Virus record (IMG/VR): IMGVR_UViG_3300044305_003112
Location: 1 to 64,000 of that record
Direction: 5' to 3' (one strand)
Source of the DNA: a virus
Taxonomy: Duplodnaviria > Caudoviricetes
Length of the DNA: 64,000 nt
This document shows positions 12,828-31,835 of this stretch, piece by piece (position 1 is the first letter of the stretch; every line of letters begins with the position of its first letter). The notes beneath the pieces were generated by a model that was not told the origin of the DNA, made no database searches, and saw only the letters and a program-made list of their open reading frames with translations. The position numbers were made by a program, and so were the translations under genes.

Positions 12828-13628
12828 ATGATAAGTTTAACCCAATTATTAAGTGAAGTAGAAAGTGGACCAAAAGCTATAATTTTAGCAGGAGCACCCG
12901 GTGCTGGTAAAGGTTATATTTTAAAAGGATTAGATTTAGGAGGATTAAAAATATTAAATATAGATGATATTTATATTCAAAATTTAAAAAATGCAAATGT
13001 ATCTTTAAATTTAAAAAAATCTTCACCTGAAGAAAGAAGTCTATCAGCCAAAGCAATGGCAGCAGCTAATAAAGAATTTAAAGGTAATGTTGCTTCTACA
13101 ATTGAAAATAAAGAATCATTCATATTAGATGGCACAGGCGCTTCATATAATCAAACTGTTAAATTAAAAAATGAATTAGAAGAAGCAGGATATAATGTAT
13201 TTATGCTTTATGTTTATACTGATTTAGAGCGTTCATTAAAACAAAATCAAGATAGATTTGAAAAATCAGGTGGTAAAGATAGAAGTTTAGCCCCAGCTAT
13301 AGTAATGCGTACATGGAATTCAGTAACTAAAAATCATAGTCCTTATAAAGAATTATTTGGTAATAATTTTGTTTCAGTTGCTAATACTTTAGAAGATGAA
13401 AAAATGGATAATTTAGAAGATATAATAAAAACCTATTTAGATCCTTTTAAACCTCAAAATACAAAACCTAAAGATGAAAAAGCTAAAGCAAGATCTGCTA
13501 AATCAAAAGCAGAATTAGAAGCAGATTTAAAATTATTATTATCTGACGAAGGGGTAAAAGATATTATAAACACATCAGTATCAAGGGAAGAAGCACAATC
13601 AAAAATAAAGACATTTTTAACTAGATGA
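12828..13628 (+). CDS. P-loop kinase (zeta-toxin/AAA_33-like)
   Basis: AIILAGAPGAGKG Walker A, NIDD, FILDGTG, and R...NQDR lid-like motif. Confidence 0.75.
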   Translation: MISLTQLLSEVESGPKAIILAGAPGAGKGYILKGLDLGGLKILNIDDIYIQNLKNANVSLNLKKSSPEERSLSAKAMAAANKEFKGNVASTIENKESFILDGTGASYNQTVKLKNELEEAGYNVFMLYVYTDLERSLKQNQDRFEKSGGKDRSLAPAIVMRTWNSVTKNHSPYKELFGNNFVSVANTLEDEKMDNLEDIIKTYLDPFKPQNTKPKDEKAKARSAKSKAELEADLKLLLSDEGVKDIINTSVSREEAQSKIKTFLTR

Positions 13629-15631
13629 ATGAACTAACAAAAGAATTAGTAAGAGGATTAATGGAAGTAGATGATACTAAAGTAGTTGCTCTTTATGGAG
13701 GTGGTTTTAAACCCCCCATAAGAGGACACTTTAATGTTGTTAAACAAGCTTTAGCTGAATACCCTGAAATTGATGAATTCCGAATTTTTGTTGGAGGATT
13801 AGAAAGAGATGGAATAGATCAAACAGAATCTTTATTAATTTGGGACATTTATAAAAATTATTTACCTCAAAAAGTAAAAATTATACCAGCTAAAAATCCA
13901 ATTGGAGATATTTATAGAGCTCCTAAAAATGATCCTGAATTAGAATTTTATTGGGTTATAGGAAAAAGAGAAGGAGAGGAAGATGATGAATATGATATAA
14001 AAACAAGATCAGCCCCATTAATAACAAACCCAGATAAATACCCAAATTTAAATTTAAAAACTATAACAACATCAGACTCAAATATGAGAGCTAGAAATGC
14101 TAGAAAAGCTTTAACATTAGATTCTGATGAGTTTAAAAATTTTTTACCTCATGAATTAAGTGATGAAGATAAAGAAGAAGTATATAATATAGCATCTACA
14201 AAATTAATAAATGAAAATATTACTAAAAATCAATTAGATTCAATTGAATCATATGCTGATGGTTTATTTAATAAATTAGGAATTGACATCGATTTTACAA
14301 AACATTTTTTTGATAGATTAAATGACATTAGAAATAAAAAACCAATATCAGTAGCTGAATTAATAGGTATATTTAAAAAATTATATAAAAAACACGGTAA
14401 ACCTTTATCAAAAACTGAAGATGATTTAGAAGCTGTTGTAAAAGATTTTAATAAAAATATTAATATTCCTTTTGTAATTGATGTAGATCAAAATGGAATA
14501 GATATGACTGCAAAAACTATAATGAGGAAACAAGATTTTCAAACATCTAATCCAGTTATCCCTTTAGAAGAAAATGCAACATATTCAGATTATATAGATT
14601 ATAAAGGAAAAATAAAAGATTTAACTAAACATATGATAAAAATGGGTTTAAATATTTTACCCCTACCTAAAGTAATATTTTATCATAGTGAAAAATCAAA
14701 TGCTAAAAATTTTTTCGGAAAAACTGCATATTATAACCCTGAAACTAAAACTATAGTATTATATACTGAAGGTAGACATCCAAAAGATATAGTAAGATCA
14801 TTTTCTCATGAAATGATTCATCACATACAAAATTTAGAAGATAGATTAGGTGATATAATGACTACAAATACTAATGAAGATGATGAATTAGATGCAATAG
14901 AAAGAGAAGCATATCAAGAAGGGAATATGATTTTTAGAAATTGGACAGATTCTATTGATGGTGAAATTACTACTGACATAGAAGAAGGAGGTTCATTAAT
15001 TCCTATTAAAGTCGAAAAAACAAAAAAGGATCCATTTGGACTAAATGCTTATGCTTTAGAATTAGCTAAAGGTTTAGAAGAAACTATTGATTTACCTAAC
15101 CATGATGGTAAAGCGGCTCCCTATGGATCAGGTTATAAACCTATAACAGAAGATGAAAAATATACTATATATTCTGATATGGATGGTGTAATAGCTGATT
15201 TTGATACTAGATTTAAACAATTCTCAGATGGAATACCACCATCAGATTATGTAGATAAATTTGGTTTAGAAAAATTTTGGGAATTAATTGATGACGAAGT
15301 AGGAGTTAGATTTTGGACAGGAATTGAATGGATGCCAGGAAGCCAAGAATATTGGGATTACATTAAAAAATACAATCCCATATTACTATCAGCTCCCTCA
15401 CGTAATAATGAATCTAGATTAGGAAAAAGAGTATGGGCAAAACGTAATTTACCGGGTGTTAAATTAATTTTAGCTTTTGCTAATAATAAAAAAAATTATG
15501 CTAATGAAAATTCAATATTAATTGATGATAGAGAAAAAAACATCAATCAATGGAAAGAAGCAGGTGGAATAGGAATTTTACATACTAGTGTAGCTTCAAC
15601 TATTGCTCAATTAAAAGAATTAGGTTTATGA
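13625..15631 (+). CDS. Multidomain fusion: HIGH-type nucleotidyltransferase + putative RNase-like domain + HEXXH metallopeptidase-like + HAD 5'-nucleotidase
   Basis: VALYGGGFKPPIRGH (HIGH-like), FTKHFFDRLND, FSHEMIHHIQ, and YSDMDGVIADF...LIDDREKN (HAD, NT5C-like). Confidence 0.75.
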   Translation: MNELTKELVRGLMEVDDTKVVALYGGGFKPPIRGHFNVVKQALAEYPEIDEFRIFVGGLERDGIDQTESLLIWDIYKNYLPQKVKIIPAKNPIGDIYRAPKNDPELEFYWVIGKREGEEDDEYDIKTRSAPLITNPDKYPNLNLKTITTSDSNMRARNARKALTLDSDEFKNFLPHELSDEDKEEVYNIASTKLINENITKNQLDSIESYADGLFNKLGIDIDFTKHFFDRLNDIRNKKPISVAELIGIFKKLYKKHGKPLSKTEDDLEAVVKDFNKNINIPFVIDVDQNGIDMTAKTIMRKQDFQTSNPVIPLEENATYSDYIDYKGKIKDLTKHMIKMGLNILPLPKVIFYHSEKSNAKNFFGKTAYYNPETKTIVLYTEGRHPKDIVRSFSHEMIHHIQNLEDRLGDIMTTNTNEDDELDAIEREAYQEGNMIFRNWTDSIDGEITTDIEEGGSLIPIKVEKTKKDPFGLNAYALELAKGLEETIDLPNHDGKAAPYGSGYKPITEDEKYTIYSDMDGVIADFDTRFKQFSDGIPPSDYVDKFGLEKFWELIDDEVGVRFWTGIEWMPGSQEYWDYIKKYNPILLSAPSRNNESRLGKRVWAKRNLPGVKLILAFANNKKNYANENSILIDDREKNINQWKEAGGIGILHTSVASTIAQLKELGL

Positions 15632-16203
15632 AAGAAAATATTTTAAAAAAAGAATGGTCAAAAAGAGATGTTAAACGTGCTCGTAATATTCTATCAGGAA
15701 AAACTAACGAACGTACTATTAAAGGAGTAGGTTATTCTAAAAAAAATGAATTCCACAAAGAAGGAGATATTTGGGAAGAAGATGGTAGAAAATGGACTAT
15801 TAAAAATGGATTAAAACAAAACATTACTAAATATGATAAAGTAAAAAAAATGGTAAGAACACCTTTATTTTGTCCTAGTTGTAATAAGTTAATGAAACAT
15901 AAATTTGATCCTGATTTTTTTAGAGTTCATAAAACATGTTATGAATGTTATTTATATTTTGAATCTGAATTAAAGCAAAGGGGCGTTTGGGAAGAATATG
16001 AAAAAAATATACATAATGGAGAATTAAATGCTTTTATAAATGAATTTAAAAATTGGTTTGAAGATCAATTAAATAATGAAACAAATAAATCATTTATTAC
16101 TGAACAAGGTGATGTAGAAAATTGGAAAGGTGGAATAAATAAATCTAGAGCTTTAGAAAGTTTAGAAAAAACAATAAAATATTTAGAAAATTTAAAGAAA
16201 TAA
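15628..16203 (+). CDS. Hypothetical protein with zinc-finger motif
   Basis: CPSC...CYEC, 191 aa. ATGA overlap with the upstream gene. Confidence 0.6.
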   Translation: MKENILKKEWSKRDVKRARNILSGKTNERTIKGVGYSKKNEFHKEGDIWEEDGRKWTIKNGLKQNITKYDKVKKMVRTPLFCPSCNKLMKHKFDPDFFRVHKTCYECYLYFESELKQRGVWEEYEKNIHNGELNAFINEFKNWFEDQLNNETNKSFITEQGDVENWKGGINKSRALESLEKTIKYLENLKK

Positions 16204-16213
16204 AGAAAAATAT

Positions 16214-16223
16214 ATATTTATAA
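16214..16223 (+). promoter_or_regulatory. Late-promoter-like motif ATATTTATAA
   Basis: Upstream of 16239. Confidence 0.65.
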
Positions 16224-16238
16224 AATATAACTATAATT

Positions 16239-16874
16239 ATGAGTGATTTTAATATACATAAATGGAATAAAAGTAGATATTTAAAAGAAGGAAATATCAA
16301 AGAAGATAATTATAAGTTAGTTAATAGTATCTCAAATATAGCAGATATGTATTCATATGGTGAAATATTAGATGCATTAGAGTCATTTTACATCAAAAAT
16401 GATGAACAAAAATCTGCTGAAATAGCAAGAAAACATGCTAAAGAATTTAGAGAATTTTTAGGCCCAGATGAAGAAGAAGATTTATATAATGAATTAAGTA
16501 ATATAGGCATAAATGAAAAAAAAAACTTAAATGAAAGTAGTAAACACCAATTAAATCAATTAAGTTGGGATTTTATATTAAGAGCACTGCCTGGATTTGG
16601 AGAAGAATGGGATGAACTTCATTTAGAAACACCAACTGACGCTGATAGAGTCGTCAGCAATGAGCGTAGCTTTGATATGTGGTTAGAAGATATGGTTAAA
16701 ATGGGATATGGAAAAGAAGAAGTAATTATAGACCCTGAAGGTAAAGATTGGATGGGTAGAGTTAATATACGAAGTGGAGGTGTTAAAATTGTAGGTGATA
16801 AATTTACTAAAGATAAACAAGAATATATTGATGGTAAAGCAGCTACATTAAAAAGTTGGGGTACTACTAATTAA
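16239..16874 (+). CDS. Putative internal head protein
   Basis: Late promoter upstream. YLKE, IKE, INE and LNE protease-type sites. Confidence 0.5.
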   Translation: MSDFNIHKWNKSRYLKEGNIKEDNYKLVNSISNIADMYSYGEILDALESFYIKNDEQKSAEIARKHAKEFREFLGPDEEEDLYNELSNIGINEKKNLNESSKHQLNQLSWDFILRALPGFGEEWDELHLETPTDADRVVSNERSFDMWLEDMVKMGYGKEEVIIDPEGKDWMGRVNIRSGGVKIVGDKFTKDKQEYIDGKAATLKSWGTTN

Positions 16875-16879
16875 AAAAT

Positions 16880-17527
16880 ATGAAATTTTCATCAACTAAA
16901 TTACTAAAAGAAAATAAAATAACTCCTAATCAAGAAGATGAGTTAATGGATATGATGTTATCATACATTAAAGATCCCGATGATGCTGAAAAAAAAATAG
17001 AAGATTACTTATATGGTAATTTAAGTAATGATTATACCCCATTTGATATAAGAACCTTTGGAAATATCCCCTCAGATTTTGAAGATGAAATTATTGCATG
17101 GACAAAAAAACATAATTTAAACGAAGCAGAAGAAGGAGAAAATGATAATAGAGTATCTCAAGCTGAATTAATTCTTCCTAGAGGTAAAAAAGTTGTTTTA
17201 CAAGCAGAAGAAAAAGATTATAAAAGAGGATTAATAGTAGAACTAACAGAAGAAGGAGGATATAAAATAAATTACTGGTATGGTGATGATGTTAAAGTAT
17301 ACCCCGCTGAAGTATTAGTTGATGGAGAATCTATTAAACCTGATGCCAATGAAGTTTATATAAAATTTCATCCTGAATTAGAAGAAGGTACTTGTGGGTA
17401 TGATAAAACAGGAAATATTGACCCAGAAAACACAACATTTAAAACCCCGGGTGGGTTAAAAAGCATACCTGGTGAAAAAAGAACAGAATTAATTAAAAAA
17501 ATAATGGAAAAACTTAAATCTAAATAG
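16880..17527 (+). CDS. Putative internal head protein
   Basis: LLKE, LNE and LEE sites separate small modules. Confidence 0.5.
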   Translation: MKFSSTKLLKENKITPNQEDELMDMMLSYIKDPDDAEKKIEDYLYGNLSNDYTPFDIRTFGNIPSDFEDEIIAWTKKHNLNEAEEGENDNRVSQAELILPRGKKVVLQAEEKDYKRGLIVELTEEGGYKINYWYGDDVKVYPAEVLVDGESIKPDANEVYIKFHPELEEGTCGYDKTGNIDPENTTFKTPGGLKSIPGEKRTELIKKIMEKLKSK

Positions 17528-17535
17528 ATTTTAAC

Positions 17536-17548
17536 ATATTTATAAATA
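17536..17548 (+). promoter_or_regulatory. Late-promoter-like motif ATATTTATAAATA
   Basis: Upstream of 17562. Confidence 0.7.
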
Positions 17549-17561
17549 AAAATATACAATC

Positions 17562-18419
17562 ATGAGTGAATTTAACTATAAAGATTATTTAAAAAACAAT
17601 CCTCTTTTAAAAAATGAAAAAGAGTCTTTAAAAGAAGAAGTTAAAAAGTCTTCATCTAAGATAACAATATCTGAATTAAAGAAAAAAATTAAAGAAAAAA
17701 TACTAAAAGAATCTGATGCTGTGTCTTGGAAATATAATAATAATCCAACAAAAGGAGGCACTTTAGATTTAGACCCTAAAAAAGTAGGAAAGTCAACAGT
17801 ACAAGAAGACGAAGAAGTAGAAGATACTGAAAATGTTGATGTTAAAGATACTGAAAACGTTGATGTTGACACAGAAACAGACATTGATGTAACAGATGAT
17901 GAATCTGTAGCAGTTGATGATGAATCATCAGAAGCAGAAACAAATATCGATGTTAAAATGCCTGGTGAAGTAAATAAAAATGTTGAATTAATTCAAGGTT
18001 TACTAACCAAAGCTCAACAAACAGCTGAAAAATTAGGTGATGCTAAATTATTAGATCAAATTGGAAATACTATTACTTATTTTACAAGAGCTCATGTTGT
18101 AAAATCTAATGTAGAAGAATCACTTGAAGAAGCAGTTGTTGACTTTGAATTACCCGCACCAATAGCAACTAAAGCAAATCAAATGGTTAAAGATGTTGGT
18201 GATATGGCTAGAATAATATTAGCATTAATAGATCAAATATCAGCAAAAGAACAAGTAAATTTTGATAAAAATGCATTCTTTAAAATAGCTATACAAAAAT
18301 TAACTGATTTAGAACAAAAAGACCAAACAAAATCAGGAGAAGAAGAAGAAGTTGAAACAAAAGAAACAGAAACAGAAGAAACAGAAACAGTAACGTCATC
18401 AGCAACAGAAAAGGTATAA
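17562..18419 (+). CDS. Acidic putative internal head protein
   Basis: Late promoter upstream. SLKE, ILKE, VQE and SLEE sites; D/E/T-rich linkers. Confidence 0.5.
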   Translation: MSEFNYKDYLKNNPLLKNEKESLKEEVKKSSSKITISELKKKIKEKILKESDAVSWKYNNNPTKGGTLDLDPKKVGKSTVQEDEEVEDTENVDVKDTENVDVDTETDIDVTDDESVAVDDESSEAETNIDVKMPGEVNKNVELIQGLLTKAQQTAEKLGDAKLLDQIGNTITYFTRAHVVKSNVEESLEEAVVDFELPAPIATKANQMVKDVGDMARIILALIDQISAKEQVNFDKNAFFKIAIQKLTDLEQKDQTKSGEEEEVETKETETEETETVTSSATEKV

Positions 18420-18420
18420 A

Positions 18421-19269
18421 ATGTTAAAAGAGCGTAAACTTACCAAAGCAGAACTTGATAAGCGTGAGGACATCATCATGAATATGAAGAAAAATAAACG
18501 CGATTTAGTTAAAAAATATGGTAAGGACGCTGAAGCAGTAATGTATGGTAGAGCTACTAATATAGCTAAAAAAACAACAGAATCAATGGCAATTAATAAT
18601 CGATTAAGAGAAATGGTCAAAACAGCTTTATCAACTCCTAAAGTAAAAGAAGCAATAGGTAAGGAAGATGGTGAAGTAGATGATGATCTATCAGTTGGGG
18701 TTTATACTGAAAACCCACCTAAAAAGAAAAAAACTAATGAAGATTTACAATTAGATGAAAATGAACAATTAGTTCAATCTTGTTATATATCAGAAACTAT
18801 AAATGAAGGCCATAAAGGAAAATTAGATTTAGAAGGAAAAATGGCTAGAAAGCAATTAGCAAAAATAGCTAAATATGCTCAACATTTATTTCATATGTTA
18901 GATAATAAATCTCAATTAGAAAGTTGGGTTCAAGCTAAATTAACAAAAGCATCAGATTATATGAGCTCTGTTAAGCATTATTTAGAAGGTGAAGCATTAA
19001 CATCAGCACCTCCTGTTATGAATGAAGATGAAGCTATTAAAGATATAGAAGGAAGAGCGCTAAACATTGGTGATGTAGTAAAATGCCCAGATAATAATGA
19101 GTACCAATGTATGTATTCATATTCTGAAAAATTACCATTTTTATCACCATATGATGGTAAAAAACCTGATTTAATGAATAAAATGTATTTTAAAGATAAA
19201 CCAGAATTTGCTAAAAGATTAGAAAAAGTAAAAGATTATTCTCAAACAAAAGGTGGATTTATTAAGTAA
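18421..19269 (+). CDS. Putative internal head protein, modular
   Basis: MLKE, VKE, ISE, INE and MNE sites flank modules such as EGKMARKQL...LESWVQAKLTKASDY. Confidence 0.5.
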   Translation: MLKERKLTKAELDKREDIIMNMKKNKRDLVKKYGKDAEAVMYGRATNIAKKTTESMAINNRLREMVKTALSTPKVKEAIGKEDGEVDDDLSVGVYTENPPKKKKTNEDLQLDENEQLVQSCYISETINEGHKGKLDLEGKMARKQLAKIAKYAQHLFHMLDNKSQLESWVQAKLTKASDYMSSVKHYLEGEALTSAPPVMNEDEAIKDIEGRALNIGDVVKCPDNNEYQCMYSYSEKLPFLSPYDGKKPDLMNKMYFKDKPEFAKRLEKVKDYSQTKGGFIK

Positions 19270-19271
19270 AT

Positions 19272-19742
19272 ATGACACGACAAGAGTTAAAAGACAAACT
19301 ACGCTTGTTAATAAAACAAGTTTACCCTGCTGTAATGCAATCCGAAACAGCAGTATTAGAGTATGATGAATTAACAAAATTCCCGGAACTTAAAGCAGTA
19401 ATTATCGATCTTTTAACTTATGAGTTCGATAATTTTTTAGCATCTATAGATTGGGTTGCACCTCGTCCTAGTACATTTAGAATTAATTTAAAAAATGGTG
19501 AACTTTTTTATCTAATTTATAATGGTAGAAGTTGGGTAGCTCAAGTAGAAGGGAAAAATTATTATTTATTAAATCTTCCTGAAGAAGAACAAGCAGCTAT
19601 GGCAATAGCTAGAATATTAAGATATGGCTCTCCTGATGCTGAAACTGAAGAAGTAGAGACTACAGAAACAGAAACTGAAGAAACAGAAACAGAAGAAACA
19701 ACTGAAGAACCAGCAGAAGAGCCAGCAGCAGAAGAAGCATAA
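19272..19742 (+). CDS. Hypothetical phage protein with acidic tail
   Basis: 156 aa. MTRQELKDKLRLLIK leader; C-terminal TE/EEPA repeats. Confidence 0.55.
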   Translation: MTRQELKDKLRLLIKQVYPAVMQSETAVLEYDELTKFPELKAVIIDLLTYEFDNFLASIDWVAPRPSTFRINLKNGELFYLIYNGRSWVAQVEGKNYYLLNLPEEEQAAMAIARILRYGSPDAETEEVETTETETEETETEETTEEPAEEPAAEEA

Positions 19743-20830
19743 TGGATTCAATAACTACATTTTTAAATAAAATATCTTATAAATTTCCAAAAGGTTACCC
19801 GGATATGAATAACCCAAAGGATAAAAATTTATTATTTGAAATAATAACAGGTGTTGTAAAAGAAAATGAAGAAATAGATATTGATGAAGTAAGAAGTGAA
19901 ATAGAAAGTTTAATAAAAAACATATCTGATCCTGAAGAATTAAAACAAATAGCTAAATATGCTAAAAACGTAGGTTTTGGGAATTCAATGAAGAAACATT
20001 TAGCTGATAAAAATTTAAGTTCAAAAGATATTTTATTTTTTCAATCACTTTTATCTGAATTAGGTAAGACAGGAGATTTTGCAAAATTATCTGAAAATCC
20101 ACCTACATTTGATTTAACTAAAAATAATTACTTTGACCAAATACCAGGATTTGACAATACAGATTTAAAATCTTTATATAGTGATATGAAAGATTCTATT
20201 CAAGGAACAGTTTCATTAGGACCTGGAGAAGCATTTTTATCTGTATTTTTTAATAATGTTAAAAAAGCAGAATCAAAGGGGGACTTAAATATAGGAGGTA
20301 AAGAAGTTGAATTAAAATCTAGAACAGGAGCATCAGGGGCAATGGTTGCTCCTAAATATGTTGTAAGAGGTAAAGCGGATGATATAATAAAAGAAATGGA
20401 AAAATTAATTAATACTTTTGATTTAGAAGATGTTCAAAAAGAAGAATTAAAAAATTTAATTAGACCTAAAGGAACCTCTTGGCCTTATAAAATTGATAAA
20501 TTATTTAAATCTGCTTTAGAATTAGGTATAGATAACAAAAAATTAACAAAAGATTTATCAGATGAAATTAGTTCTTGGTATAAAAATAAATTACCAATGA
20601 ATTTTGAGTCATATTTTACAGATAATGAATTTGAAGCTAAAAAGTTTATCGATAATTTAGCTACAACTTTAGCAAAAGATTATTTTGAAGAACATGGGTT
20701 TGATGGTTTTATGATATCTGATAATGTAGGAAATTTTAAATATTATGATGGAGGTGATTTTATAGATGCTATTGGTAATGATATAATAGTTTCTAACCCT
20801 TCTGACTTAGTTCCTAGAATAAAAGTATAA
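19742..20830 (+). CDS. Hypothetical protein with restriction-endonuclease-like motif
   Basis: GPGEAFL...GDLNIGGKEVELKS fits a PD-(D/E)XK core; leader ends in VVKE. Confidence 0.5.
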   Translation: MDSITTFLNKISYKFPKGYPDMNNPKDKNLLFEIITGVVKENEEIDIDEVRSEIESLIKNISDPEELKQIAKYAKNVGFGNSMKKHLADKNLSSKDILFFQSLLSELGKTGDFAKLSENPPTFDLTKNNYFDQIPGFDNTDLKSLYSDMKDSIQGTVSLGPGEAFLSVFFNNVKKAESKGDLNIGGKEVELKSRTGASGAMVAPKYVVRGKADDIIKEMEKLINTFDLEDVQKEELKNLIRPKGTSWPYKIDKLFKSALELGIDNKKLTKDLSDEISSWYKNKLPMNFESYFTDNEFEAKKFIDNLATTLAKDYFEEHGFDGFMISDNVGNFKYYDGGDFIDAIGNDIIVSNPSDLVPRIKV

Positions 20831-20836
20831 TTTTTA

Positions 20837-20846
20837 ATATGTATAA
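20837..20846 (+). promoter_or_regulatory. Late-promoter-like variant ATATGTATAA
   Basis: Upstream of 20849. Confidence 0.5.
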
Positions 20847-20848
20847 TC

Positions 20849-21946
20849 ATGAGCAAAAACACAGGTAAAAAAGATTGCAATTGTGGATGTGGTGGGTGTA
20901 AAACTAAATCTATAGGTCCTATATTGAGGGAAAATAAAGTATTTAGTACTCCATTGTCTAATGATTTAAAATTTCATATAGACAATAATATACCGTTAAA
21001 CGAAACAAAACATCGTGTGGGTTCTAAAAAATTTAAAAAATTAATTAATGAAGCTTCTGCATTATACTCACGTTTTATTTTAGATTTAAATAAAAAAGAT
21101 GAAAAGATAATAAAAGAAGGAGTTGGATTTGGAAATAAAATGGGGGGTAATAATTTTACACCACAAAAAGAAATACCTAGAGATAGATCTAGAAAAGATA
21201 ATATAGGCAGATTAAAACCAAATATGTCAACACCAGGAATAAAATCATTATCAGAAAATGAAAAATTAATTCAATCTTGTTATATAAAAGAAGATAAAGA
21301 TTATTATGAAAAAGCAAAAGATTTAGAGGGAAAAAAACAATCAATAATAGATCAACTAGAAAAATTATTAGACTCTTTAACACCCCCAACATCAGATAAT
21401 TTAGAAGCAAGACAAGGTTTAAAAGCAGCTTTAAAAAGTAATAATGTAGTAATGATGAAAAAAGCTTTAGATCATTGGAGAGAAAAATTAGATCCTAGAT
21501 CAAGTTTTACAGATGATGATTGGGAAAATTTTTATGCAGATTATGATTTACCTGAAGGTAAAATAAAAGAATCACAAGATTTAGAAACAGAAGCTAAACA
21601 ATATTTTTTAAAAAAGTTTATGGATGGTGAAATTAAAAAATTACCTGATCTTAAAGATGTTAAAGCAGCTTATATGAAATTAAAATTAAAAGGAGAGGTA
21701 AATGAAGCTGAAGAAGATGAAAAAGAAGGAAAAAAAGTTACTGTTGATGGTGAACCATTTAAAAAACATAACATAAAAAATCTTCAAGAAATGGACCCAG
21801 TAAAATGGGATTTACAAAATGGAATAGCAGCTCAATGGGTTCCTGACAAAGTAGGTCATACAGCTGATGGAGATATAACTGATGATCCTGGAGATGGATA
21901 TGATACTAACAATAAAGATACTATAAACGAAAAATTAATCAATTAA
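20849..21946 (+). CDS. Putative internal head protein, modular
   Basis: CNCGCGGC leader. ILRE, IIKE, LSE, IKE, VNE and LQE sites. Confidence 0.5.
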   Translation: MSKNTGKKDCNCGCGGCKTKSIGPILRENKVFSTPLSNDLKFHIDNNIPLNETKHRVGSKKFKKLINEASALYSRFILDLNKKDEKIIKEGVGFGNKMGGNNFTPQKEIPRDRSRKDNIGRLKPNMSTPGIKSLSENEKLIQSCYIKEDKDYYEKAKDLEGKKQSIIDQLEKLLDSLTPPTSDNLEARQGLKAALKSNNVVMMKKALDHWREKLDPRSSFTDDDWENFYADYDLPEGKIKESQDLETEAKQYFLKKFMDGEIKKLPDLKDVKAAYMKLKLKGEVNEAEEDEKEGKKVTVDGEPFKKHNIKNLQEMDPVKWDLQNGIAAQWVPDKVGHTADGDITDDPGDGYDTNNKDTINEKLIN

Positions 21947-21960
21947 TAAAAAATAAAAAA

Positions 21961-22047
21961 ATGAAAAAATTTATATGTAATTTAATCTGTATTTTAACTT
22001 TTAATAAAGTTTGTATAGGTTGGTGCAACCTAAAATGTTGCAAGTAA
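21961..22047 (+). CDS. Small Cys-rich peptide (28 aa), not in the ORF track
   Basis: ATG after an A-rich tract. Translates to MKKFICNLICILTFNKVCIGWCNLKCCK followed by TAA, then a terminator. Confidence 0.5.
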   Translation: MKKFICNLICILTFNKVCIGWCNLKCCK

Positions 22048-22092
22048 AAATCTGATTCATAGCCAGATACCCTTTATGGGTTTTTTATATAG

Positions 22093-22159: not shown

Positions 22160-23446
22160 ATGAAACAAATAGTAATTATAGGAGCAGGAGTAGCAGGTGT
22201 TAATGCTGCTACAAAATTAGTTGATAACAATTATAAAGGTAAAATTACCATAATTGATATGGGTAATGATCCCTTTAAACGTAAACCTGAAGAAGTAATG
22301 ACGGGTTTTATGGGAGCCGGAGGTTGGTCAGATGGTAAATTGACATATCATACTTCTATTGGTGGTCATTTATCAAAATATTGTGGTGAAGATAAAGCTA
22401 TGGAGTTAATGGATCAAGTTATTAATAATTTTAGAAGATTTCACCCTAAACCTGAAGTAATACAATGTTCACATCCTGTAGAAGAACCAGAATTTATTAA
22501 ACCTTATTTTGGTTTGCGATTATTTCCTGTATGGCATATAGGAACTGATTATCTACATGAAATTGGTAAAAATTGGTATACATATTTAACTGATAACGGT
22601 GTAGAATTTTTATGGAATACTAAAGTAGATGATATTAATTTTGATACTAATTTAGTTTATGGAGAAAACATTCCATCAGGAAGAATATATTATGATAAAT
22701 TAATATTTGGAGTAGGTAAATCAGGGATTGATTTTGGAAAACAATTAGCTGAAAAATACGAATTACCAACAGAACCAAAACCAGTACAAATAGGAGTTAG
22801 ATTTGAAGCACCACAAAAACATTTTCAAAAATTAATTGACATATCATATGATTTTAAGTTATATAAAAAGTTTGATAATGTAAGTTTAAGAACATTTTGT
22901 ACAAACAATAATGCTGCTTATGTTGCTTTAGAAAAAACTTATGGTGATCATTCTTATAATGGACATGCTAAAAAAGATGAAGCATATAGAAATAACATGA
23001 CTAATTTTGGTATATTAATGGAAATTAGAGGTATAGATAAACCATTTGATTGGTCAAGAGAAGCAGTTAAAAAATTACAATGTAGTGGAACAGGCACATA
23101 TTATTCCCCAGGTAATAGATTACCATCTAAAACATCAGAAGGTGATTTTGTTAGATGTGTTGTAGTAGAAAATATGGAACCTTTATTTGAATCATTAGGA
23201 GAAGAAAATGCTCAATATATAGAAGATTTCATTACAGAAATGCAAATAGTATTCCCAACATTAAAAGATGATTGGGGTATTTATATGCCTGAAGTAAAAT
23301 ACCTATCACCTGAACCTTTAGTAAATTATGAAGATTTAAGTCTTACTAGATTTTCTGATGTCTATTTTGTAGGTGATGCGTTATCAGCAAGAGGTATAAC
23401 AGTATCTGGGGCACAAGGTACTTATGTAGCTGAAAGTATATTATGA
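22160..23446 (+). CDS. FAD-dependent oxidoreductase
   Basis: IIGAGVAG Rossmann motif, GAGGWSDGK, and YFVGD...GITVSGAQG C-terminal FAD motif. Confidence 0.85.
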   Translation: MKQIVIIGAGVAGVNAATKLVDNNYKGKITIIDMGNDPFKRKPEEVMTGFMGAGGWSDGKLTYHTSIGGHLSKYCGEDKAMELMDQVINNFRRFHPKPEVIQCSHPVEEPEFIKPYFGLRLFPVWHIGTDYLHEIGKNWYTYLTDNGVEFLWNTKVDDINFDTNLVYGENIPSGRIYYDKLIFGVGKSGIDFGKQLAEKYELPTEPKPVQIGVRFEAPQKHFQKLIDISYDFKLYKKFDNVSLRTFCTNNNAAYVALEKTYGDHSYNGHAKKDEAYRNNMTNFGILMEIRGIDKPFDWSREAVKKLQCSGTGTYYSPGNRLPSKTSEGDFVRCVVVENMEPLFESLGEENAQYIEDFITEMQIVFPTLKDDWGIYMPEVKYLSPEPLVNYEDLSLTRFSDVYFVGDALSARGITVSGAQGTYVAESIL

Positions 23447-23829
23447 AAAGTTTAATACTTAATAATAAAATAGAAGTTAGAAAAAGTAAAATTCATGGAT
23501 ATGGGGTTTTTGCTAAAGAAAAAATAAAAAAAGGTGAAATATTAGAAGAATGTCATATTATATCTTTTCCTAAAGAATATTATGATTTAGTACCTTTATA
23601 TAGAAATGCTTATGTTTTTCCTAGAAAGGATAATTATAAAGAAATTGTCTTACCTTTAGGATATGGGTGTATATATAATTCCTCATCTAATCCAAATGCG
23701 GATTGGACAACAGATGAAAAGAGAAGATTAATTATCTTTAAAAGTATAGAAGAAATAGAGAAAAATGAAGAAATATGTTGGGATTATGAAGTAAATATTG
23801 TATATTGTATAAAAAATAATTTAATATGA
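23443..23829 (+). CDS. SET-domain protein (putative lysine methyltransferase)
   Basis: KSKIHGYGVFAKEKIKKGE, YNSSSNPNA (NHS motif variant), EEICWDY. Confidence 0.8.
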   Translation: MKSLILNNKIEVRKSKIHGYGVFAKEKIKKGEILEECHIISFPKEYYDLVPLYRNAYVFPRKDNYKEIVLPLGYGCIYNSSSNPNADWTTDEKRRLIIFKSIEEIEKNEEICWDYEVNIVYCIKNNLI

Positions 23830-24356
23830 AAATAGGTTTTTGTGGAACAATGAGTGTAGGTAAAACTACATTAGTAAATGCATTAAAAAATGAACCAGAA
23901 TTTAAAGATTATAAATTTGCAACAGAACGTAGTAAATATTTAAGTTCATTAGGAATACCTTTAAACACAGATAGTACTTTAAAAGGCCAATTGGTATTCG
24001 CAGCTGAAAGAGCAGCAGAATTAATGCAAGAAAAAATGATAACAGATAGAACTATTATTGATGTAATGGCTTTTTGTGAATTATCTGATTCTATGAGTGA
24101 AGCTGAAAAACAACATATAAGTGGGGTTTTATGGCATCTTATAAAAGAATATGACATTATATTTCATATAGATGATCTTTCTGTTCCTATTGAAGACAAT
24201 GGAGTTAGAGAAACAAATAAAAATTACAGATTGGATATTCATAAAAAAATATCATCTATATTAGGAATGCATAGGTGGATGCCTGGTAAAGTAGTTAAAA
24301 TTTCCGGCACAACTGAAGAACGCATAAACCAGGTGAAAGCTTCACTTTCTTTATGA
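23826..24356 (+). CDS. P-loop kinase, AAA_28/NadR-kinase-like
   Basis: IGFCGTMSVGKTT Walker A, ATE, ITDRTIID, YDIIF. Confidence 0.75.
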   Translation: MKIGFCGTMSVGKTTLVNALKNEPEFKDYKFATERSKYLSSLGIPLNTDSTLKGQLVFAAERAAELMQEKMITDRTIIDVMAFCELSDSMSEAEKQHISGVLWHLIKEYDIIFHIDDLSVPIEDNGVRETNKNYRLDIHKKISSILGMHRWMPGKVVKISGTTEERINQVKASLSL

Positions 24357-24368
24357 TATTTATAAATA
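24356..24368 (+). promoter_or_regulatory. Late-promoter-like motif ATATTTATAAATA
   Basis: Upstream of 24379. Confidence 0.7.
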
Positions 24369-24378
24369 AAAATATCTC

Positions 24379-24894
24379 ATGAAAAAATCCCAACTTAAAG
24401 CAGCTATCAAAGAAGAAATTAAATTAGCTTTAAATGAAGCAGACCCCAAAGATATTCAAAATCAGGATGCTATTAATAAAGCATTAGAAACAACTAAAAA
24501 AATGATGGATGATATTAATGCAACAGAAGATTCAGTTAGTTTAGCAGAAGCAGATCCTGAAGATGTAAAAAGTCAAAAAGAACTTAATAAATCATTAGAA
24601 AAAACATTAGATGCTGCTAAAGAATTAAAATCAATAGAATTATCTGAATTTAAAAACAAAATAAGGGAAGAAATTATATCTGTTTTAAAAGAAGATGAAG
24701 AACCAACAGCATCCCAATTATCAGGAGATAGTGTAGCTGTTTTAGCTTCTAAACTTCAAGACACTACATCAGAAATGAAATCTACTGCTAATAAAATGAA
24801 AAAAACAGAAGATGTAACAGAAAAAGAAAAATTAATGGATAGATTAAAAACATTAAATAGAATAAAAAAAGAAATAGAATCAATGTTAGAATAA
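24379..24894 (+). CDS. Putative internal head protein with internal duplication
   Basis: MKKSQLKAAIKEEIKLALNE leader; repeated L(N/A)EADP(K/E)D unit; late promoter upstream. Confidence 0.5.
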   Translation: MKKSQLKAAIKEEIKLALNEADPKDIQNQDAINKALETTKKMMDDINATEDSVSLAEADPEDVKSQKELNKSLEKTLDAAKELKSIELSEFKNKIREEIISVLKEDEEPTASQLSGDSVAVLASKLQDTTSEMKSTANKMKKTEDVTEKEKLMDRLKTLNRIKKEIESMLE

Positions 24895-24895
24895 T

Positions 24896-25222: not shown

Positions 25223-25599
25223 TGAAAAAAATTTTATATATATTAATATTATTATTTACATTTAATGTTTTTAGTCAAGATAAAATAGTTAAAATACCAC
25301 AATCAGAACTTGATGCTTTCTTTTTAGCCATAGATACACTACAATATCAAGATTCTATTAAGTCAGTTTTAATAGCAGACTTACAATTACAAAACACTAA
25401 TTTTTTTAATTTACGTGTTAATGATATGGCTAAATTTGCAGCTAAAGATGAAGAAATTTTATTACTAAATAACCAAATTAAATTATATGAAGATAGATTA
25501 AAAATTACAGATAGGTGGTATAATAAAAGATGGTTTGGTGTAGTTGTAGGTGTTGTAGGAACATCAACGGCAATTTATTTAGCTGGACAAATTAAATAA
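25222..25599 (+). CDS. Secreted/membrane protein (spanin-like partner)
   Basis: Signal peptide MKKILYILILLFTFNVFS|Q, coiled coil, C-terminal TM WFGVVVGVVGTSTAIYLA. Confidence 0.45.
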   Translation: MKKILYILILLFTFNVFSQDKIVKIPQSELDAFFLAIDTLQYQDSIKSVLIADLQLQNTNFFNLRVNDMAKFAAKDEEILLLNNQIKLYEDRLKITDRWYNKRWFGVVVGVVGTSTAIYLAGQIK

Positions 25600-25600
25600 A

Positions 25601-27175: not shown

Positions 27176-27176
27176 T

Positions 27177-27186
27177 ATATTTATAA
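27177..27186 (+). promoter_or_regulatory. Late-promoter-like motif ATATTTATAA
   Basis: Upstream of the portal gene. Confidence 0.65.
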
Positions 27187-27198
27187 AAATAAAACAAA

Positions 27199-29058
27199 AT
27201 GGCAGATAAAGGCTTATTTTCAAGATTAAGAAGATTATTCGGAACAGACGTATTAATTCGTAACGTAGGGGGTAATCAACTTAAGGTTATGGATGTCAAT
27301 CAGATACAAATGTCTGGTGATCTAGAAACTAACTCATTAATAGATAGATTTAATAGAGTTTATACAAACTCTCCAAATTCATTATATGGTCAACAAACAA
27401 ATTTTAACTATCAAACGTTAAGACCATATCTTTATTCAGAATATGACGCAATGGATACTGATGCTATAGTTGCATCAGCACTCGATATTTTAGCAGATGA
27501 ATCTACATTAAAAAATGATATGGGAGAAGTTCTTCATATTAAAAGTTCAGATGAAAATATTCAAAAAATATTATATAATTTATTTTATGATGTAATGAAT
27601 ATTGAATTTAATTTATGGCCTTGGATTAGAAATATGGCTAAATATGGAGATTTCTTTTTAAAATTAGAAATAGCAGAAAAGTTTGGGGTATATAATGTAA
27701 TTCCTTATACGGCGTTTCATATTGAAAGACAAGAAGGTTGGAATCAAGAAAACCCACAAGAAATAAGATTTAGATATGATCCTGACGGTATAGCAACATC
27801 TGATTATGGTTATTTTAATGTTCCTAATTCTGGTGAACAAGCAAATAATATATTTTTTGATAATTATGAAATGGCTCATTTTAGACTATTAACAGATATG
27901 AATTTTTTACCTTATGGAAGATCATATATAGAACCTGCTCGAAAATTATTTAAACAATATACTTTAATGGAAGATGCTATGTTAATTCATAGAGTTGTTA
28001 GAGCACCTGAAAAAAGAATATTTTACATGAATGTTGGTTCTATTCCTCCTAATGAAGTAGATGCATTTATGGAAAAAACCATAACAAAATTAAAGCGTAC
28101 TCCTCATATGGACGAAAATACAGGTGAGTATAATCTAAAATATAACCTTCAAAACTTATTAGAAGATTTTTATATACCAGTTAGGGGTAATGACACAGCT
28201 ACAAAAATAGAAAATTTAGGAGGACTACAATTTGATGGAATTCAAGATGTAGAGTATATGAGAGAAAAATTATTTGCAGCTTTAAAAGTTCCAAAAGCAT
28301 TTATGGGTTATGATGCTAATTTAGAAGGTAAAGCAACTTTAGCTGCCCAAGATATTAGATTTGCAAGAACTATAGAAAGAATCCAAAGAATATTTACATC
28401 AGAGTTATATAAAATAGCTTTAATTCATCTATACACTCAGGGCTATAGAGATGCGAGTTTAACTAATTTTGAAATATCGTTAACAACTCCATCAATAATA
28501 TATGATCAAGAAAGAATAGCATTAATGACTGAAAAAATGACATTAGCTCAATCAATGATAGATAGTAAATTAATTCCATCTGATTGGATTTATGAAAATA
28601 TATTCCACTTTAGTGAGGATGAATATGAAGAATACAGAGATTTAATTAAAAATGATGTTAAGCGTACATTTAGATTAACACAGATAGAAGGAGAAGGAAA
28701 TGACCCATTAGAAACAGGACAATCATATGGAACTCCACATGATTTAGCTGCATTATATGGTAAAGGAAGAATGTACTCAGATCCATCTAATATACCAGCA
28801 GGTTATGATGAAGGTACAACTAAAAAAGTACCATTAGGTCGTCCTAAAAAACAATTAACAAAACGTAATAAACAAGAAGATAATTTAGGAAAAGATAGAT
28901 TAGGAGTAAAAAGAATGAAAGATGATAAAAGTGTTAATGAAACAACTGCTAATCAAATAATGAATAAGTATGAAAGTATGTTGAAAAACATTCCTTATAG
29001 CGAGAAAAAAATTATAACTGAAAAAAAAGTTAAAAAAAGTAAAAAAACTAAAAAATAA
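27199..29058 (+). CDS. Portal protein (T4 gp20-like)
   Basis: YDAMDTDAIVASALDI, EDAMLIHRVVRAPEKRIFY, EDFYIPVRG. Follows the terminase. Confidence 0.93.
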   Translation: MADKGLFSRLRRLFGTDVLIRNVGGNQLKVMDVNQIQMSGDLETNSLIDRFNRVYTNSPNSLYGQQTNFNYQTLRPYLYSEYDAMDTDAIVASALDILADESTLKNDMGEVLHIKSSDENIQKILYNLFYDVMNIEFNLWPWIRNMAKYGDFFLKLEIAEKFGVYNVIPYTAFHIERQEGWNQENPQEIRFRYDPDGIATSDYGYFNVPNSGEQANNIFFDNYEMAHFRLLTDMNFLPYGRSYIEPARKLFKQYTLMEDAMLIHRVVRAPEKRIFYMNVGSIPPNEVDAFMEKTITKLKRTPHMDENTGEYNLKYNLQNLLEDFYIPVRGNDTATKIENLGGLQFDGIQDVEYMREKLFAALKVPKAFMGYDANLEGKATLAAQDIRFARTIERIQRIFTSELYKIALIHLYTQGYRDASLTNFEISLTTPSIIYDQERIALMTEKMTLAQSMIDSKLIPSDWIYENIFHFSEDEYEEYRDLIKNDVKRTFRLTQIEGEGNDPLETGQSYGTPHDLAALYGKGRMYSDPSNIPAGYDEGTTKKVPLGRPKKQLTKRNKQEDNLGKDRLGVKRMKDDKSVNETTANQIMNKYESMLKNIPYSEKKIITEKKVKKSKKTKK

Positions 29059-29082
29059 AATTAAAGGATGAAAAATCCTTAT

Positions 29083-29092
29083 ATATTTATAA
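29083..29092 (+). promoter_or_regulatory. Late-promoter-like motif ATATTTATAA
   Basis: Upstream of 29109. Confidence 0.65.
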
Positions 29093-29108
29093 AAAAATCA
29101 TATAATTA

Positions 29109-29969
29109 ATGCGTGTAAAACATTCAAAGTTCAAAAATACAGGTCTTTTATTTGAGCTTTTAGTAAGAAAGATTACGTCTGATACTTTAAATGGTAAAGA
29201 TTCACCAGCAGTAAATATTTTAAAAAAATATTTTGTTAATACTGAATTAGGTAAAGAATATAAACTATATGAAACAGTATTTAAAAAATCCGTGGTTGTA
29301 ACTGAAAGTAAAGCAAATATTGTATTAAATACAGTATTAGAAACATCAAGAAAATTAAATAGAAGTTCTTTAAAAAGAGAAAAATATAATATAATTAGAG
29401 AATTAAGGGAAAAATACAATATAGAGGATTTATTTAAGATGAATATAAGTAATTATAAACCTTTAGCAGCTCTATATACATTATTTGAAATTTACAACTC
29501 ACAAGATATAACAGACCCAAATCAAATAGTAGATAATAAAGTAACTCTTTTAGAACATTTAACATCTAAAGAAGTTAACAAATCAGAAGTTAAACACGAT
29601 ATTATAGAAGAATTTAAATCATATGATAAAGATTTAAGAATTCTTACTTACAGAGTATTATTAGAAAAATTTAATGATAAATATTCTGACTTAAATAAGT
29701 CCCAAAAATCAATTTTAAGAGAATTTATTAATAATGTAGATAATACTAATAAATTAAAAGAATTTTATAATAATAAAATAATTGAATTAAAAAGGAATAT
29801 TTTATTAGAAACTAAAAAAGTAAAAGATAGAGCTACAAAAATAAAATTATTAGAAGTTAACAAATACATTGTTGAAATTGATAAAAGAAAAAAAATCAAT
29901 AATAATAATTTAGTAGATTTATTACAATATTATAGTCTTTTTGAAGAATTACAAAAGTCAAATGGGTAA
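29109..29969 (+). CDS. Hypothetical head-assembly-region protein
   Basis: 286-aa helical protein between portal and protease, with a late promoter. Confidence 0.55.
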   Translation: MRVKHSKFKNTGLLFELLVRKITSDTLNGKDSPAVNILKKYFVNTELGKEYKLYETVFKKSVVVTESKANIVLNTVLETSRKLNRSSLKREKYNIIRELREKYNIEDLFKMNISNYKPLAALYTLFEIYNSQDITDPNQIVDNKVTLLEHLTSKEVNKSEVKHDIIEEFKSYDKDLRILTYRVLLEKFNDKYSDLNKSQKSILREFINNVDNTNKLKEFYNNKIIELKRNILLETKKVKDRATKIKLLEVNKYIVEIDKRKKINNNNLVDLLQYYSLFEELQKSNG

Positions 29970-31242
29970 ATTTAAATTTAAATTAAAAGAAGCCGAACCA
30001 GGAGATGAAATAATTTTCATTGAACCTAGACCTGAAGCCGAAAGAGGTGTTGATGATGAACCTGGAGGTAAAATAATTTATGTTGATGATGAAAGAGTTC
30101 CTAAAGAATTATTATTAAAAATCCAAGAAAAATATGGTCCAATTCCTAAAGGAAGTTATTTCACAGATAATTTTTCAATGTATTGGGAAAAATACGAACC
30201 AGATTATGGGGGTGAAGTAAATACAGGAACTAGATTAGTAACTAAACAATACAGATTACCTAATATTAATAATGTATTTAAATCATTTGTAAAACTTAAT
30301 AATGAAATTGAATGGTTAGAAAAAAATGAAGATATTAAAAAAGATGAGAGACTAACTGAAATTTTACAACAAATAAGAAAAGCATTTAACGCTTATCGTA
30401 CCCATATCAGGAAAGAATACCCAGAATTATATAAAGGTTTAAGGAATATAAGTGAAGATGAAATAGAAGAAATTTCAACAACAGGAGGAGGTGCAGGGGC
30501 AGCTTCATTTACACCTGGTACCGGGGGACAATATGCAACCCCAAATGCTTTTAGAAAAAATAAAAAGGCAAAAGGTACTGATGATGATATATTAACTAAA
30601 AAATTTGGTTATAAGTTAGCAGAAAATAAAAAAGAAGAAGAAAAAGATTCTAAAGATAAAGAAACCAAAGATTCTAAAGATTCCAAAGATAAAGAAGAAA
30701 AAAACGAAAAAAGAGAAAAACTTTTAAAACAAAAAGAAGAAATTGAAAAATTACTTAAAAAAGATCCAAAAGATTTAGATGATAAAGAAATAAAAAGTTT
30801 TGATGACATGTATAAAGCAGCCCCATCATATGAAGAACTAGGACAGTTTTGGGAAAGTTTAAATGAAGGAGTAGGAGCTATATTAGGACCAGGCCCTAAA
30901 GCAGGTCCTGATGGGGTAAAAGATAATTACTATGTAAGTAATTTTAAATATAAATTAGTTCCAAAAAAAATTAAAGGATCTGGAATATATAATGATGGGA
31001 GTGTAAAGCAATTATGGGAGGATGAAGATAATGATTCCAAAAAAAACTTTCAAAAAACAAGAATAGACGCATTTAATTCAATTGAGAAAGATCTTAACCA
31101 TATTTATAAGGCGATATCGAATGCTAAAAATGAGACAATAAAACATTATAAAAATAATCCTGATTCATATAAAGTTTTAAAACCAACAGATTTAATTAGT
31201 GATTATTTAAAAGATATAAAAAATTTAATAGGACAAGAATGA
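29941..31242 (+). CDS. Putative prohead core/internal protein; likely start 29962
   Basis: LKE, IEE, LAE, LNE and LWE sites; contains a segment resembling the mature capsid N-terminus. Confidence 0.55.
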   Translation: MKNYKSQMGKFKFKLKEAEPGDEIIFIEPRPEAERGVDDEPGGKIIYVDDERVPKELLLKIQEKYGPIPKGSYFTDNFSMYWEKYEPDYGGEVNTGTRLVTKQYRLPNINNVFKSFVKLNNEIEWLEKNEDIKKDERLTEILQQIRKAFNAYRTHIRKEYPELYKGLRNISEDEIEEISTTGGGAGAASFTPGTGGQYATPNAFRKNKKAKGTDDDILTKKFGYKLAENKKEEEKDSKDKETKDSKDSKDKEEKNEKREKLLKQKEEIEKLLKKDPKDLDDKEIKSFDDMYKAAPSYEELGQFWESLNEGVGAILGPGPKAGPDGVKDNYYVSNFKYKLVPKKIKGSGIYNDGSVKQLWEDEDNDSKKNFQKTRIDAFNSIEKDLNHIYKAISNAKNETIKHYKNNPDSYKVLKPTDLISDYLKDIKNLIGQE

Positions 31243-31835
31243 AATCATTACAAGAACAATACAACCAAATAAAAAAAGGTAAAGGCCATAAAGATGTTTT
31301 TTTGAAAGAAGCAAAACGTCTTTTTCCTAATATGATAAGTAATCTAAATACTTTTGATCAAGCAACAACTATTTTAAAACAACGTAATGTTATACAAGAA
31401 AACATTGCAGGATTAGGTATAGTAACTGATGCTAAATCAAATTCTCCTGATTGGCATAAAATTTTTGAAGATAATCTTAATAAAAATAATTATGATTACA
31501 CAGATCAAAAAGCAATAGATAATCAAAATTGGGCAGAAAGAGAAAAAGGTGTATATTTTGAAATGGAAAAAGTAAGAGATCTTATAACTGATCAAAATAT
31601 AGGAGATTTATTAGCAAAAGCAAAAAACACAGTTACTAAAAATTTAGCAAAAGATCCCTTATATTACATAAAAAATGCAGCATTTTCAGTAGATAAATTA
31701 GGATATTCAGCTGATAGACCTGGATTAAAACCTACACAAATAAAAGGAAAACATGTTGGTAGTGGTTATGGTAATCCTTCAAAGTCAAAAATCAAACCAG
31801 GAGAACCTGGAACCGGATATACACCTGTTAAATAA
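31239..31835 (+). CDS. Hypothetical head-region protein
   Basis: 198 aa; LQE, LKE and IQE sites; directly upstream of the protease. Confidence 0.5.
   Translation: MKSLQEQYNQIKKGKGHKDVFLKEAKRLFPNMISNLNTFDQATTILKQRNVIQENIAGLGIVTDAKSNSPDWHKIFEDNLNKNNYDYTDQKAIDNQNWAEREKGVYFEMEKVRDLITDQNIGDLLAKAKNTVTKNLAKDPLYYIKNAAFSVDKLGYSADRPGLKPTQIKGKHVGSGYGNPSKSKIKPGEPGTGYTPVK

Follow-up and report, generated by a model that had tools for sequence, protein, structure and literature searches.

Short leaders shared by unrelated proteins of an uncultured T4-like flavobacterial phage: candidate capsid-targeting propeptides

Why would proteins with nothing else in common begin with the same short peptide? The question is raised by a viral contig of 73 kb, IMG/VR record IMGVR_UViG_3300044305_003112, of which the first 64 kb were analysed (this whole stretch of DNA is hereafter called the window). 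In this window an original prediction had picked out eleven genes, named here by the position of their first nucleotide (12828, 13625, 16239, 16880, 17562, 18421, 19742, 20849, 24379, 29941 and 31239), as a large family of modular proteins, each with a prohead-protease-type [ILV]-x-E site in a short N-terminal leader, and had proposed that they are cargo of the capsid. When each gene of the window was compared with its homologs in 160 related loci, unrelated proteins were found to begin with the same few peptides. At the level of sequence, these leaders are shared, N-terminal, closed by L-x-E and selected as protein, and their genes lie near the head module behind a promoter motif that structural genes also carry. 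Could the leaders be the address by which these proteins reach the phage head, as in T4?

The source phage is an uncultured, distant T4-like myovirus of Flavobacteriia. The window has a G+C content of about 29%, nearly all of its genes are on the + strand, and the contig is estimated to be about 45% complete. The nearest isolate is Flavobacterium phage immuto (160 kb), which has the same gene order and a capsid protein 57% identical; a megablast search of the head module against isolate phages gave no match. Related IMG/VR contigs number in the hundreds, at least 598 as counted by the portal and 240 as counted by gene 13625.

Three classes of leader in one phage lineage

The comparison set comprised about 160 related IMG/VR loci with 2,712 open reading frames (ORFs), whose starts were assigned mechanically. 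Hidden Markov models (HMMs) were built for three classes of leader. T1 has 18 amino acids (aa), contains NFDLKKYL and ends in LLKE; T2 has about 20, starts with MKKSELK and ends in L-S/N-E; T3 has 10 and resembles MIKLxDLLKE. Searched against the 2,712 ORFs, the models match at the very beginning of proteins: 118 of 127 T1 matches, 80 of 85 T3 matches and 61 of 85 T2 matches fall in the first 10 residues, positions that make up 4.3% of all residues searched. The internal T2 copies look left over from gene fusion, because most of them are preceded by a methionine.

What follows the leader is diverse. With the leader and the next six residues removed, single-linkage clustering by local BLAST (E < 1e-3) sorts the cargo into 55 families, a number that depends on BLAST sensitivity; 35 of these carry T1, 10 carry T2 and 16 carry T3, and cargo sizes span 76 to 1222 residues. 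Few cargoes have a Pfam domain, these being a zeta-like kinase, two DUFs and an Fe/Mn superoxide dismutase. In the relative in which the latter occurs (locus L144:18948-19646), a 10-residue T3 leader and a 20-residue linker precede the normal N-terminus of the enzyme. With one representative taken per family, the information content is 2-4 bits along the leader and about 1 bit directly after it, and the glutamate at position 10 of T3 is invariant. [LIVMF]-x-E closes the leader in 31 of the 35 T1 representatives, 7 of the 10 T2 and all 16 T3, whereas other ORFs have it at these positions in 13-24% of cases.

Two further observations concern how these peptides evolve. Codons differ for 29-41% of the leader residues that are identical, and therefore selection acts on the peptide and not on the DNA. 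Leaders have also been swapped in nature: in five cargo families more than one type of leader occurs, and in one kinase homolog T1 replaces T3, with the junction exactly at LLKE. By these comparisons, the leader classes are interchangeable and common to dozens of unrelated proteins in the lineage. The 164-kb complete IMG/VR genome and immuto each have eight leader ORFs, six of the eight within 20 kb upstream of the portal; two of the eight in immuto correspond to its annotated CDSs gp076 and gp077. In the few relatives with genes between protease and scaffold the insertions are mostly T1 genes, with five inserted ORFs carrying this leader. When the N-terminal 40 residues of a T1 protein were used as the query in a global protein search, 122 metagenomic proteins of varied lengths were returned, none of them named and none with a Pfam domain. 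A tblastn search with a 25-aa leader against isolate phages, for which the query was too short, gave no match, and nothing relevant came up when the literature was searched in full text for the leader strings. By eye, T3 resembles the N-terminus of the capsid protein and T1 that of the scaffold; the leader HMMs did not reach E < 10 for either likeness, and neither is used as evidence.

Within the window, a six-frame HMM scan of the 64 kb gave significant matches to T1-T3 only in 12828, 16239, 17562 and 24379, and the last 9 kb of the contig hold no further leader matches. Three more of the eleven genes, 13625, 29941 and 31239, have leaders conserved in the lineage. For 16880 the case is thinner, as its first 11 residues are those of a relative's 59-aa ORF that keeps only the C-terminal piece of 16880, a comparison of two sequences. 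The leaders proposed for 18421, 19742 and 20849 appear to be chance motifs: in the window, the leader HMM scan supports none in these genes, nor in the neighbouring 19272.

How does this compare with the simple abundance of the motif, on which the original prediction had leaned? All eleven ORFs exist where they were placed, and 29941 more likely begins at ATG 29962, because its homologs begin there. Ten of the eleven have [ILV]-x-E in their first 30 residues (4.6 expected), a figure inflated by the genes having been picked for that property; among the remaining 43 genes, 16 have it against 13.8 expected. Over whole proteins the signal disappears. The pooled count for the eleven genes is 71, against 64.8 +/- 6.9 in composition shuffles (P = 0.2), and the bulk argument thus falls to composition, the very explanation named in advance as fatal to it. 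The motif is twice as dense in the flagged genes as in tail genes, a difference that reflects Glu content, because tail genes likewise match their own shuffles. Gene by gene, only 20849 (z = 2.9), 31239 (z = 2.2) and 29109 (z = 5.3), the last absent from the original eleven, exceed within-protein shuffles. Nor do the genes form a large family in the sense of homology: all-versus-all BLASTP reveals no paralogous family, just two short local matches, one between 18421 and 20849 (30 aa) and one between 29941 and the capsid protein (33 aa).

A late-promoter-like motif and the head module

The motif ATATTTATAA occurs in 14 exact copies in the window against 3.3 expected (none of 100 shuffles reaches 14), all of them on the + (coding) strand and 13 of them 10-45 nucleotides (nt) upstream of a start codon. 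The T4 late promoter is TATAAATA, and ATATTTATAA includes a near match to it. The genes behind the motif are 7598, the portal gene (motif at 27177-27186, +), 29109 (29083-29092, +), 38217, 46226, a sheath gene, a tube gene, 54959, 57523 and the four HMM-positive leader genes, namely 12828 (motif at 12806-12815, +), 16239 (16214-16223, +), 17562 (17536-17545, +) and 24379 (24356-24365, +). Across all loci, the motif lies within 50 nt of 149 of 260 leader ORFs (57%) versus 254 of 1795 others (14%), an odds ratio of 8 whose P-value overstates independence, the loci being related. Non-leader ORFs with the motif are mainly the portal (59 of 72), 29109 (68 of 69) and homologs of 7598, and none of the replication genes in the loci compared has it. 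The leader genes thus appear to be expressed late, with the structural genes.

The lone intragenic copy, at 31100-31109, lies inside 29941 about 130 nt upstream of the start of 31239; from there it may drive 31239, protease, scaffold and capsid as an internal promoter, unless it is a chance occurrence. Further downstream, the window encodes two tail-sheath paralogs (48949-51144 and 51453-53243) that are 65-68% identical, with an 83-aa coiled-coil-like ORF between them, and each has its own late-promoter-like motif.

The head module itself is of the T4 type, with the large terminase (25601) and portal followed by 29109, 29941, 31239, the protease (31839), the scaffold (32570) and the capsid protein (34085). 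The portal (27199-29058, +) is of the T4 gp20 type (Pfam Portal_T4, E = 1.6e-67). The protease (31839-32444, +) is a gp21-type prohead protease of family S77 (PF03420, E = 2.5e-31); aligned to T4 gp21 (5JBL), it has the catalytic triad intact, with His75, Ser128/129 and Asp154 invariant in 25 homologs. The scaffold (32570-34051, +) is very acidic and contains three copies of a repeat that is also present in the 17562-family proteins of relatives. Between protease and scaffold lies a gap (32445-32569) whose length, 125-134 nt, is nearly constant in most relatives; the predicted RNA fold of the 125-nt gap does not differ significantly from shuffles (z = -0.97). The major capsid protein (34085-35755, +) is of the gp23 type, with a predicted propeptide of aa 1-60. 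Within this propeptide are four hydrophobic-x-E sites, all of them fully conserved; by alignment to mature gp23, the last one, V-T-E60, lies no more than about 5 residues from the point that corresponds to the cleavage site of T4 gp23.

Three proteins encoded between portal and protease bear on what this protease might process. The first, 29109 (29109-29969, +), is a conserved, basic, all-helical protein directly after the portal, modelled with 14 helices (predicted local distance difference test score, pLDDT, 81) and without a fold match when the model was compared with the PDB by Foldseek. It contains 18 [ILV]-x-E sites where 7 are expected (the z of 5.3 given above), most of them conserved, and may be a prohead core protein. 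The second, 29941 (29962-31242, +), is modular, with a conserved 10-aa leader ending in L-K/N-E, counted from ATG 29962, and variable modules behind it. Its residues 167-199 (numbered from TTG 29941; nt 30439-30537) copy the predicted capsid cleavage site together with the Gly-rich new N-terminus (17 of 33 residues identical, E = 3e-7). This block is kept in many homologs amid variable surroundings, and in some relatives it stands directly after a leader of 17-23 residues. The third, 31239 (31239-31835, +), is basic (isoelectric point, pI, 9.5) and has a family-conserved leader that resembles the T4 capsid-targeting sequence (CTS): five of its first six residues are those of the T4 CTS quoted in PMC8442874, a likeness that T1-T3 do not have.

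Leader-bearing genes of the window and their neighbours

The best characterized cargo is 12828 (12828-13628, +), a Zeta/AAA_33-type P-loop kinase (Pfam Zeta_toxin PF06414, E = 1.9e-15, 57.3 bits against a gathering cut-off of 22.3). By Foldseek its model resembles adenylate kinase, PezT, zeta and AvrRxo1 at E of about 1e-5 to 1e-6. Its first 10 residues are a T3 leader ending in L-S-E (T3 HMM, E = 4e-4), and the glutamate at position 10 is invariant in 31 homologs. In the AlphaFold (AF2) model, the kinase core is predicted with confidence but residues 1-11 have pLDDT < 50, as would be expected of a peptide that is conserved yet detachable.

The next gene, 13625 (13625-15631, +), encodes a multidomain protein with an optional 15-aa leader, a HIGH-type nucleotidyltransferase annotated as NMNAT/NadR-like in immuto, a further domain, an HExxH domain without a peptidase-family match and an NT5C nucleotidase; a phmmer search against the PDB gave no match. 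Its family is bimodal, since 28 members have a 15-residue leader ending in L-x-E and 23 have none and begin directly at the nucleotidyltransferase motif. Relatives join domains of 12828, 13625 and 16880 in polyproteins 800-1325 residues long, which also contain additional inserts. The closest relative, for example, encodes a 1215-aa polyprotein of the 13625 type (L098:1129-4776) with inserted domains at residues about 317-430 and 700-900; one insert has an H...Y...E pattern that looks ADP-ribosyltransferase-like by eye, and there is a second HExxH region. Gene 16880 (16880-17527, +) is an ORFan, and its central domain recurs as a fused part of the NMNAT polyproteins in relatives; it may have a short leader of its own.

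The T1 and T2 leaders stand on acidic proteins. An ORFan, 16239 (16239-16874, +), matches the T1 HMM at its start codon (E = 7.6e-9) and nothing in Pfam or PHROG. The very acidic, scaffold-like 17562 (17562-18419, +) has an N-terminal T1 leader (E = 5.5e-7) and an internal T2 copy at nt 17670-17717 (E = 8e-4), and its homologs in relatives have scaffold repeats or a T2 leader instead. The two-module protein 24379 (24379-24894, +) begins with a T2 leader (aa 1-20, E = 5.9e-9), repeats it at aa 88-107 (nt 24640-24699, E = 6.4e-7) and has an invariant glutamate just ahead of its conserved C-terminal domain. The proposal that hydrophobic-x-E sites mark module boundaries is supported for 24379, 17562 and 29941.

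The genes between 17562 and 24379 are less easily placed. A module of the ORFan 18421 (18421-19269, +), aa 120-195, is also found inside 29941-family proteins, between portal and protease, in at least 12 relatives. The ORFans 19272, 19742 and 20849 (together 19272-21946, +) belong to the same late operon and are mosaic with 18421 in relatives; in the closest relative, 18421 and 20849 have recombined into a single protein. Pfam and PHROG searches of the ORFans gave almost nothing, and the ESM Atlas gave for 19742 only weak restriction-endonuclease-like leads (0.78-0.79). Elsewhere in the window, an ORF of 2503 aa (12-7523), with homologs 31-70% identical in relatives, possibly encodes a virion or fibre protein. 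At 23443-23829 there is a phage SET-domain gene of the protein lysine methyltransferase type (Pfam, E = 2.9e-11), flanked by FAD-oxidoreductase-like and AAA_28 kinase-like genes and nearly absent from related loci.

What the leaders may be for

The prohead-protease site of T4 is L/I-x-E. In T4, the CTS has 10-20 aa and is removed by gp21, and Alt is processed at I-T-E and L-T-E (PMC8442874, PMC5694885). The likeness of the leaders to the CTS of T4 IPI, IPII, IPIII and Alt is that of a short N-terminal propeptide, placed on unrelated proteins and ending in hydrophobic-x-Glu, here recognized from genomes alone. Both phages encode a gp21-family protease, a gp20 portal, a gp23 capsid protein and an acidic scaffold, and they share apparently late expression and a cargo that is hypervariable between relatives. 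We therefore consider, with modest confidence, that the leaders are probably capsid-targeting propeptides like the T4 CTS, removed by the S77 protease, which would also cut module-internal sites. The idea of cleavable T4-type leaders on diverse non-core proteins, once separated from its frequency argument, has sequence support for seven or eight of the eleven genes, because the leaders are shared, conservation drops sharply after L-x-E, leaders are swapped, the late motif precedes them, the genes cluster at the head module, modules are shared and the capsid site is copied.

The proposed sequence of events is as follows. The late proteins 12828, 13625, 16239, 17562, 24379, 29941 and 31239, and perhaps 16880, would begin with a detachable short leader, which would dock the protein onto the scaffold core during prohead assembly. 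The gp21-type protease 31839 would then cut after the terminal hydrophobic-x-Glu of the leader, and also at similar sites between the modules of 24379, 17562 and 29941. Core binding, cleavage and presence in the virion are what we infer from the leaders and from the resemblance to T4. More weakly, the enzymes (the kinase and the NMNAT/nucleotidase polyprotein, and superoxide dismutase in a relative) might remain in the head and be delivered into the host by injection. The acidic scaffold-like cargoes may have a different fate as accessory core proteins, degraded and expelled; expulsion instead of delivery is possible because several cargoes are both acidic and scaffold-like.

Several points weigh against capsid targeting. 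The internal proteins IPI-III of T4 are small, highly basic and DNA-associated, whereas the T1 and T2 cargoes 16239, 17562 and 24379 have a pI of 4.5-5.0, and only 31239 and 29109 are basic; the 31239 family is also the only one that resembles the T4 CTS in sequence. The specificity of the protease is read from its alignment with T4. No copy of ATATTTATAA lies directly upstream of the capsid and scaffold genes, whole proteins lack an [ILV]-x-E signal, and the related loci are not independent samples, which inflates P-values.

The system would also differ from T4 in scale. T4 has one leader class where this lineage has at least three interchangeable ones; T-even phages have a handful of cargo families where about 160 loci here have at least 55; enzymes and polyproteins of 800-1325 aa are among the cargo; and some proteins contain internal leader copies between modules. 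A further parallel is with the giant phages phiKZ, 201phi2-1 and SPN3US, which have many head-internal proteins, some of them paralogous and mosaic, processed by a gp21-related protease at x-x-Glu; for conserved N-termini of these proteins a CTS role has been suggested (PMC5694885). Their propeptides, however, are mostly longer than 100 residues, end in S/A/G-x-E and were seen by virion mass spectrometry, whereas those described here have 10-20 residues, end in ILVMF-x-E and are known from genomes. Another parallel is with polyvalent proteins (Iyer et al. 2017, PMC5512222), in which two to 15 unrelated effector-type domains, enzymatic ones among them, share one polypeptide, often together with an HExxH (zincin-like) peptidase domain; their genes are neighbours of head genes, and packaging and delivery are predicted for them. 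The 13625 family, with its four regions including an HExxH motif and its relatives of up to 1325 aa with inserted domains and a fused kinase, may be similar. It differs in having no MuF or portal fusion and in its HIGH nucleotidyltransferase, NT5C and zeta-like kinase, which lie outside the typical domain set, and targeting would use a short cleavable leader instead of a structural head domain.

Could the leaders be addressed to something other than the prohead core? They might be tags for a different partner, such as a modifying enzyme like those of ribosomally synthesized and post-translationally modified peptides (RiPPs), a chaperone, the membrane or a site on the tail or baseplate, with L-x-E being part of a binding helix. 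Short amphipathic N-terminal helices have many targeting roles, late co-expression suits any part of the virion, and the acidity of the cargoes also fits. In leader-guided modification of the RiPP or radical-SAM kind, however, the modifying enzyme would be expected beside the tagged genes, and here no candidate enzyme is adjacent: the sole radical-SAM gene of each complete relative is 70-90 kb from the leader cluster and is probably a QueE of the deazaguanine pathway, as deazaguanine work on immuto suggests. The SET-domain gene that does lie beside the cluster is not co-conserved with the leaders. Moreover, the leader genes cluster at or in the head module and not the tail module, and the leaders end in the class of site that is conserved in the capsid propeptide. 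A different partner is an alternative to capsid targeting, though an unlikely one.

Alternatively, the promoter and the first codons could together be a mobile expression or recombination cassette, similar to the gene-shuffling regulatory cassettes of T4-type genomes, with a peptide that has no function of its own. This would account for the joint movement of promoter motif and leader and for the hypervariable gene content behind them. It sits badly with amino-acid-level conservation in the face of plentiful synonymous change, with the 43% of leader ORFs that have no motif within 50 nt, with leaders kept internally after gene fusions and with the invariant Glu at T3 position 10. We regard a functionless peptide as improbable; a cassette role can, in any case, be compatible with a function of the peptide. 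Still less credible is chance in Lys/Glu-rich, ordinary cytoplasmic proteins, which suits the shuffle-like whole-protein counts of [ILV]-x-E, the plausible NAD or nucleotide metabolic roles of 13625 and 12828 and the unsupported leaders of 18421, 19742 and 20849, the only genes for which it holds, but fails on identical leaders across 55 families, their N-terminal position, the conservation cliff, the swaps and the promoter link, and is ruled out for the leader-bearing subset by the HMM positions, families, codons and window scan.

Capsid targeting therefore remains the preferred reading, and the leaders are most likely an enlarged version of the T4 capsid-loading signal, so far as sequence can tell. 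A bolder picture, that of a capsid loading code of marine flavophages in which three or more interchangeable cleavable leaders would see more than 50 families packed and injected, can be offered only tentatively. Among the injected proteins would be enzymes (the zeta/AvrRxo1-like kinase, NMNAT-nucleotidase polyproteins and a superoxide dismutase), which might, for example, restore or manipulate NAD and nucleotides in the face of NAD-depleting defences. Loading by the leaders is directly testable, since the cultured Flavobacterium phage immuto bears the same leaders. If the leaders do load the head, a simple sequence rule would tell from metagenomes which proteins an abundant group of uncultured marine phages injects, a set likely to be rich in takeover and anti-defence functions, and the tags might help to package foreign proteins in Bacteroidota phages. 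The internal-protein principle of T4 would then extend to a large cargo repertoire, exchangeable and addressed by several tags.

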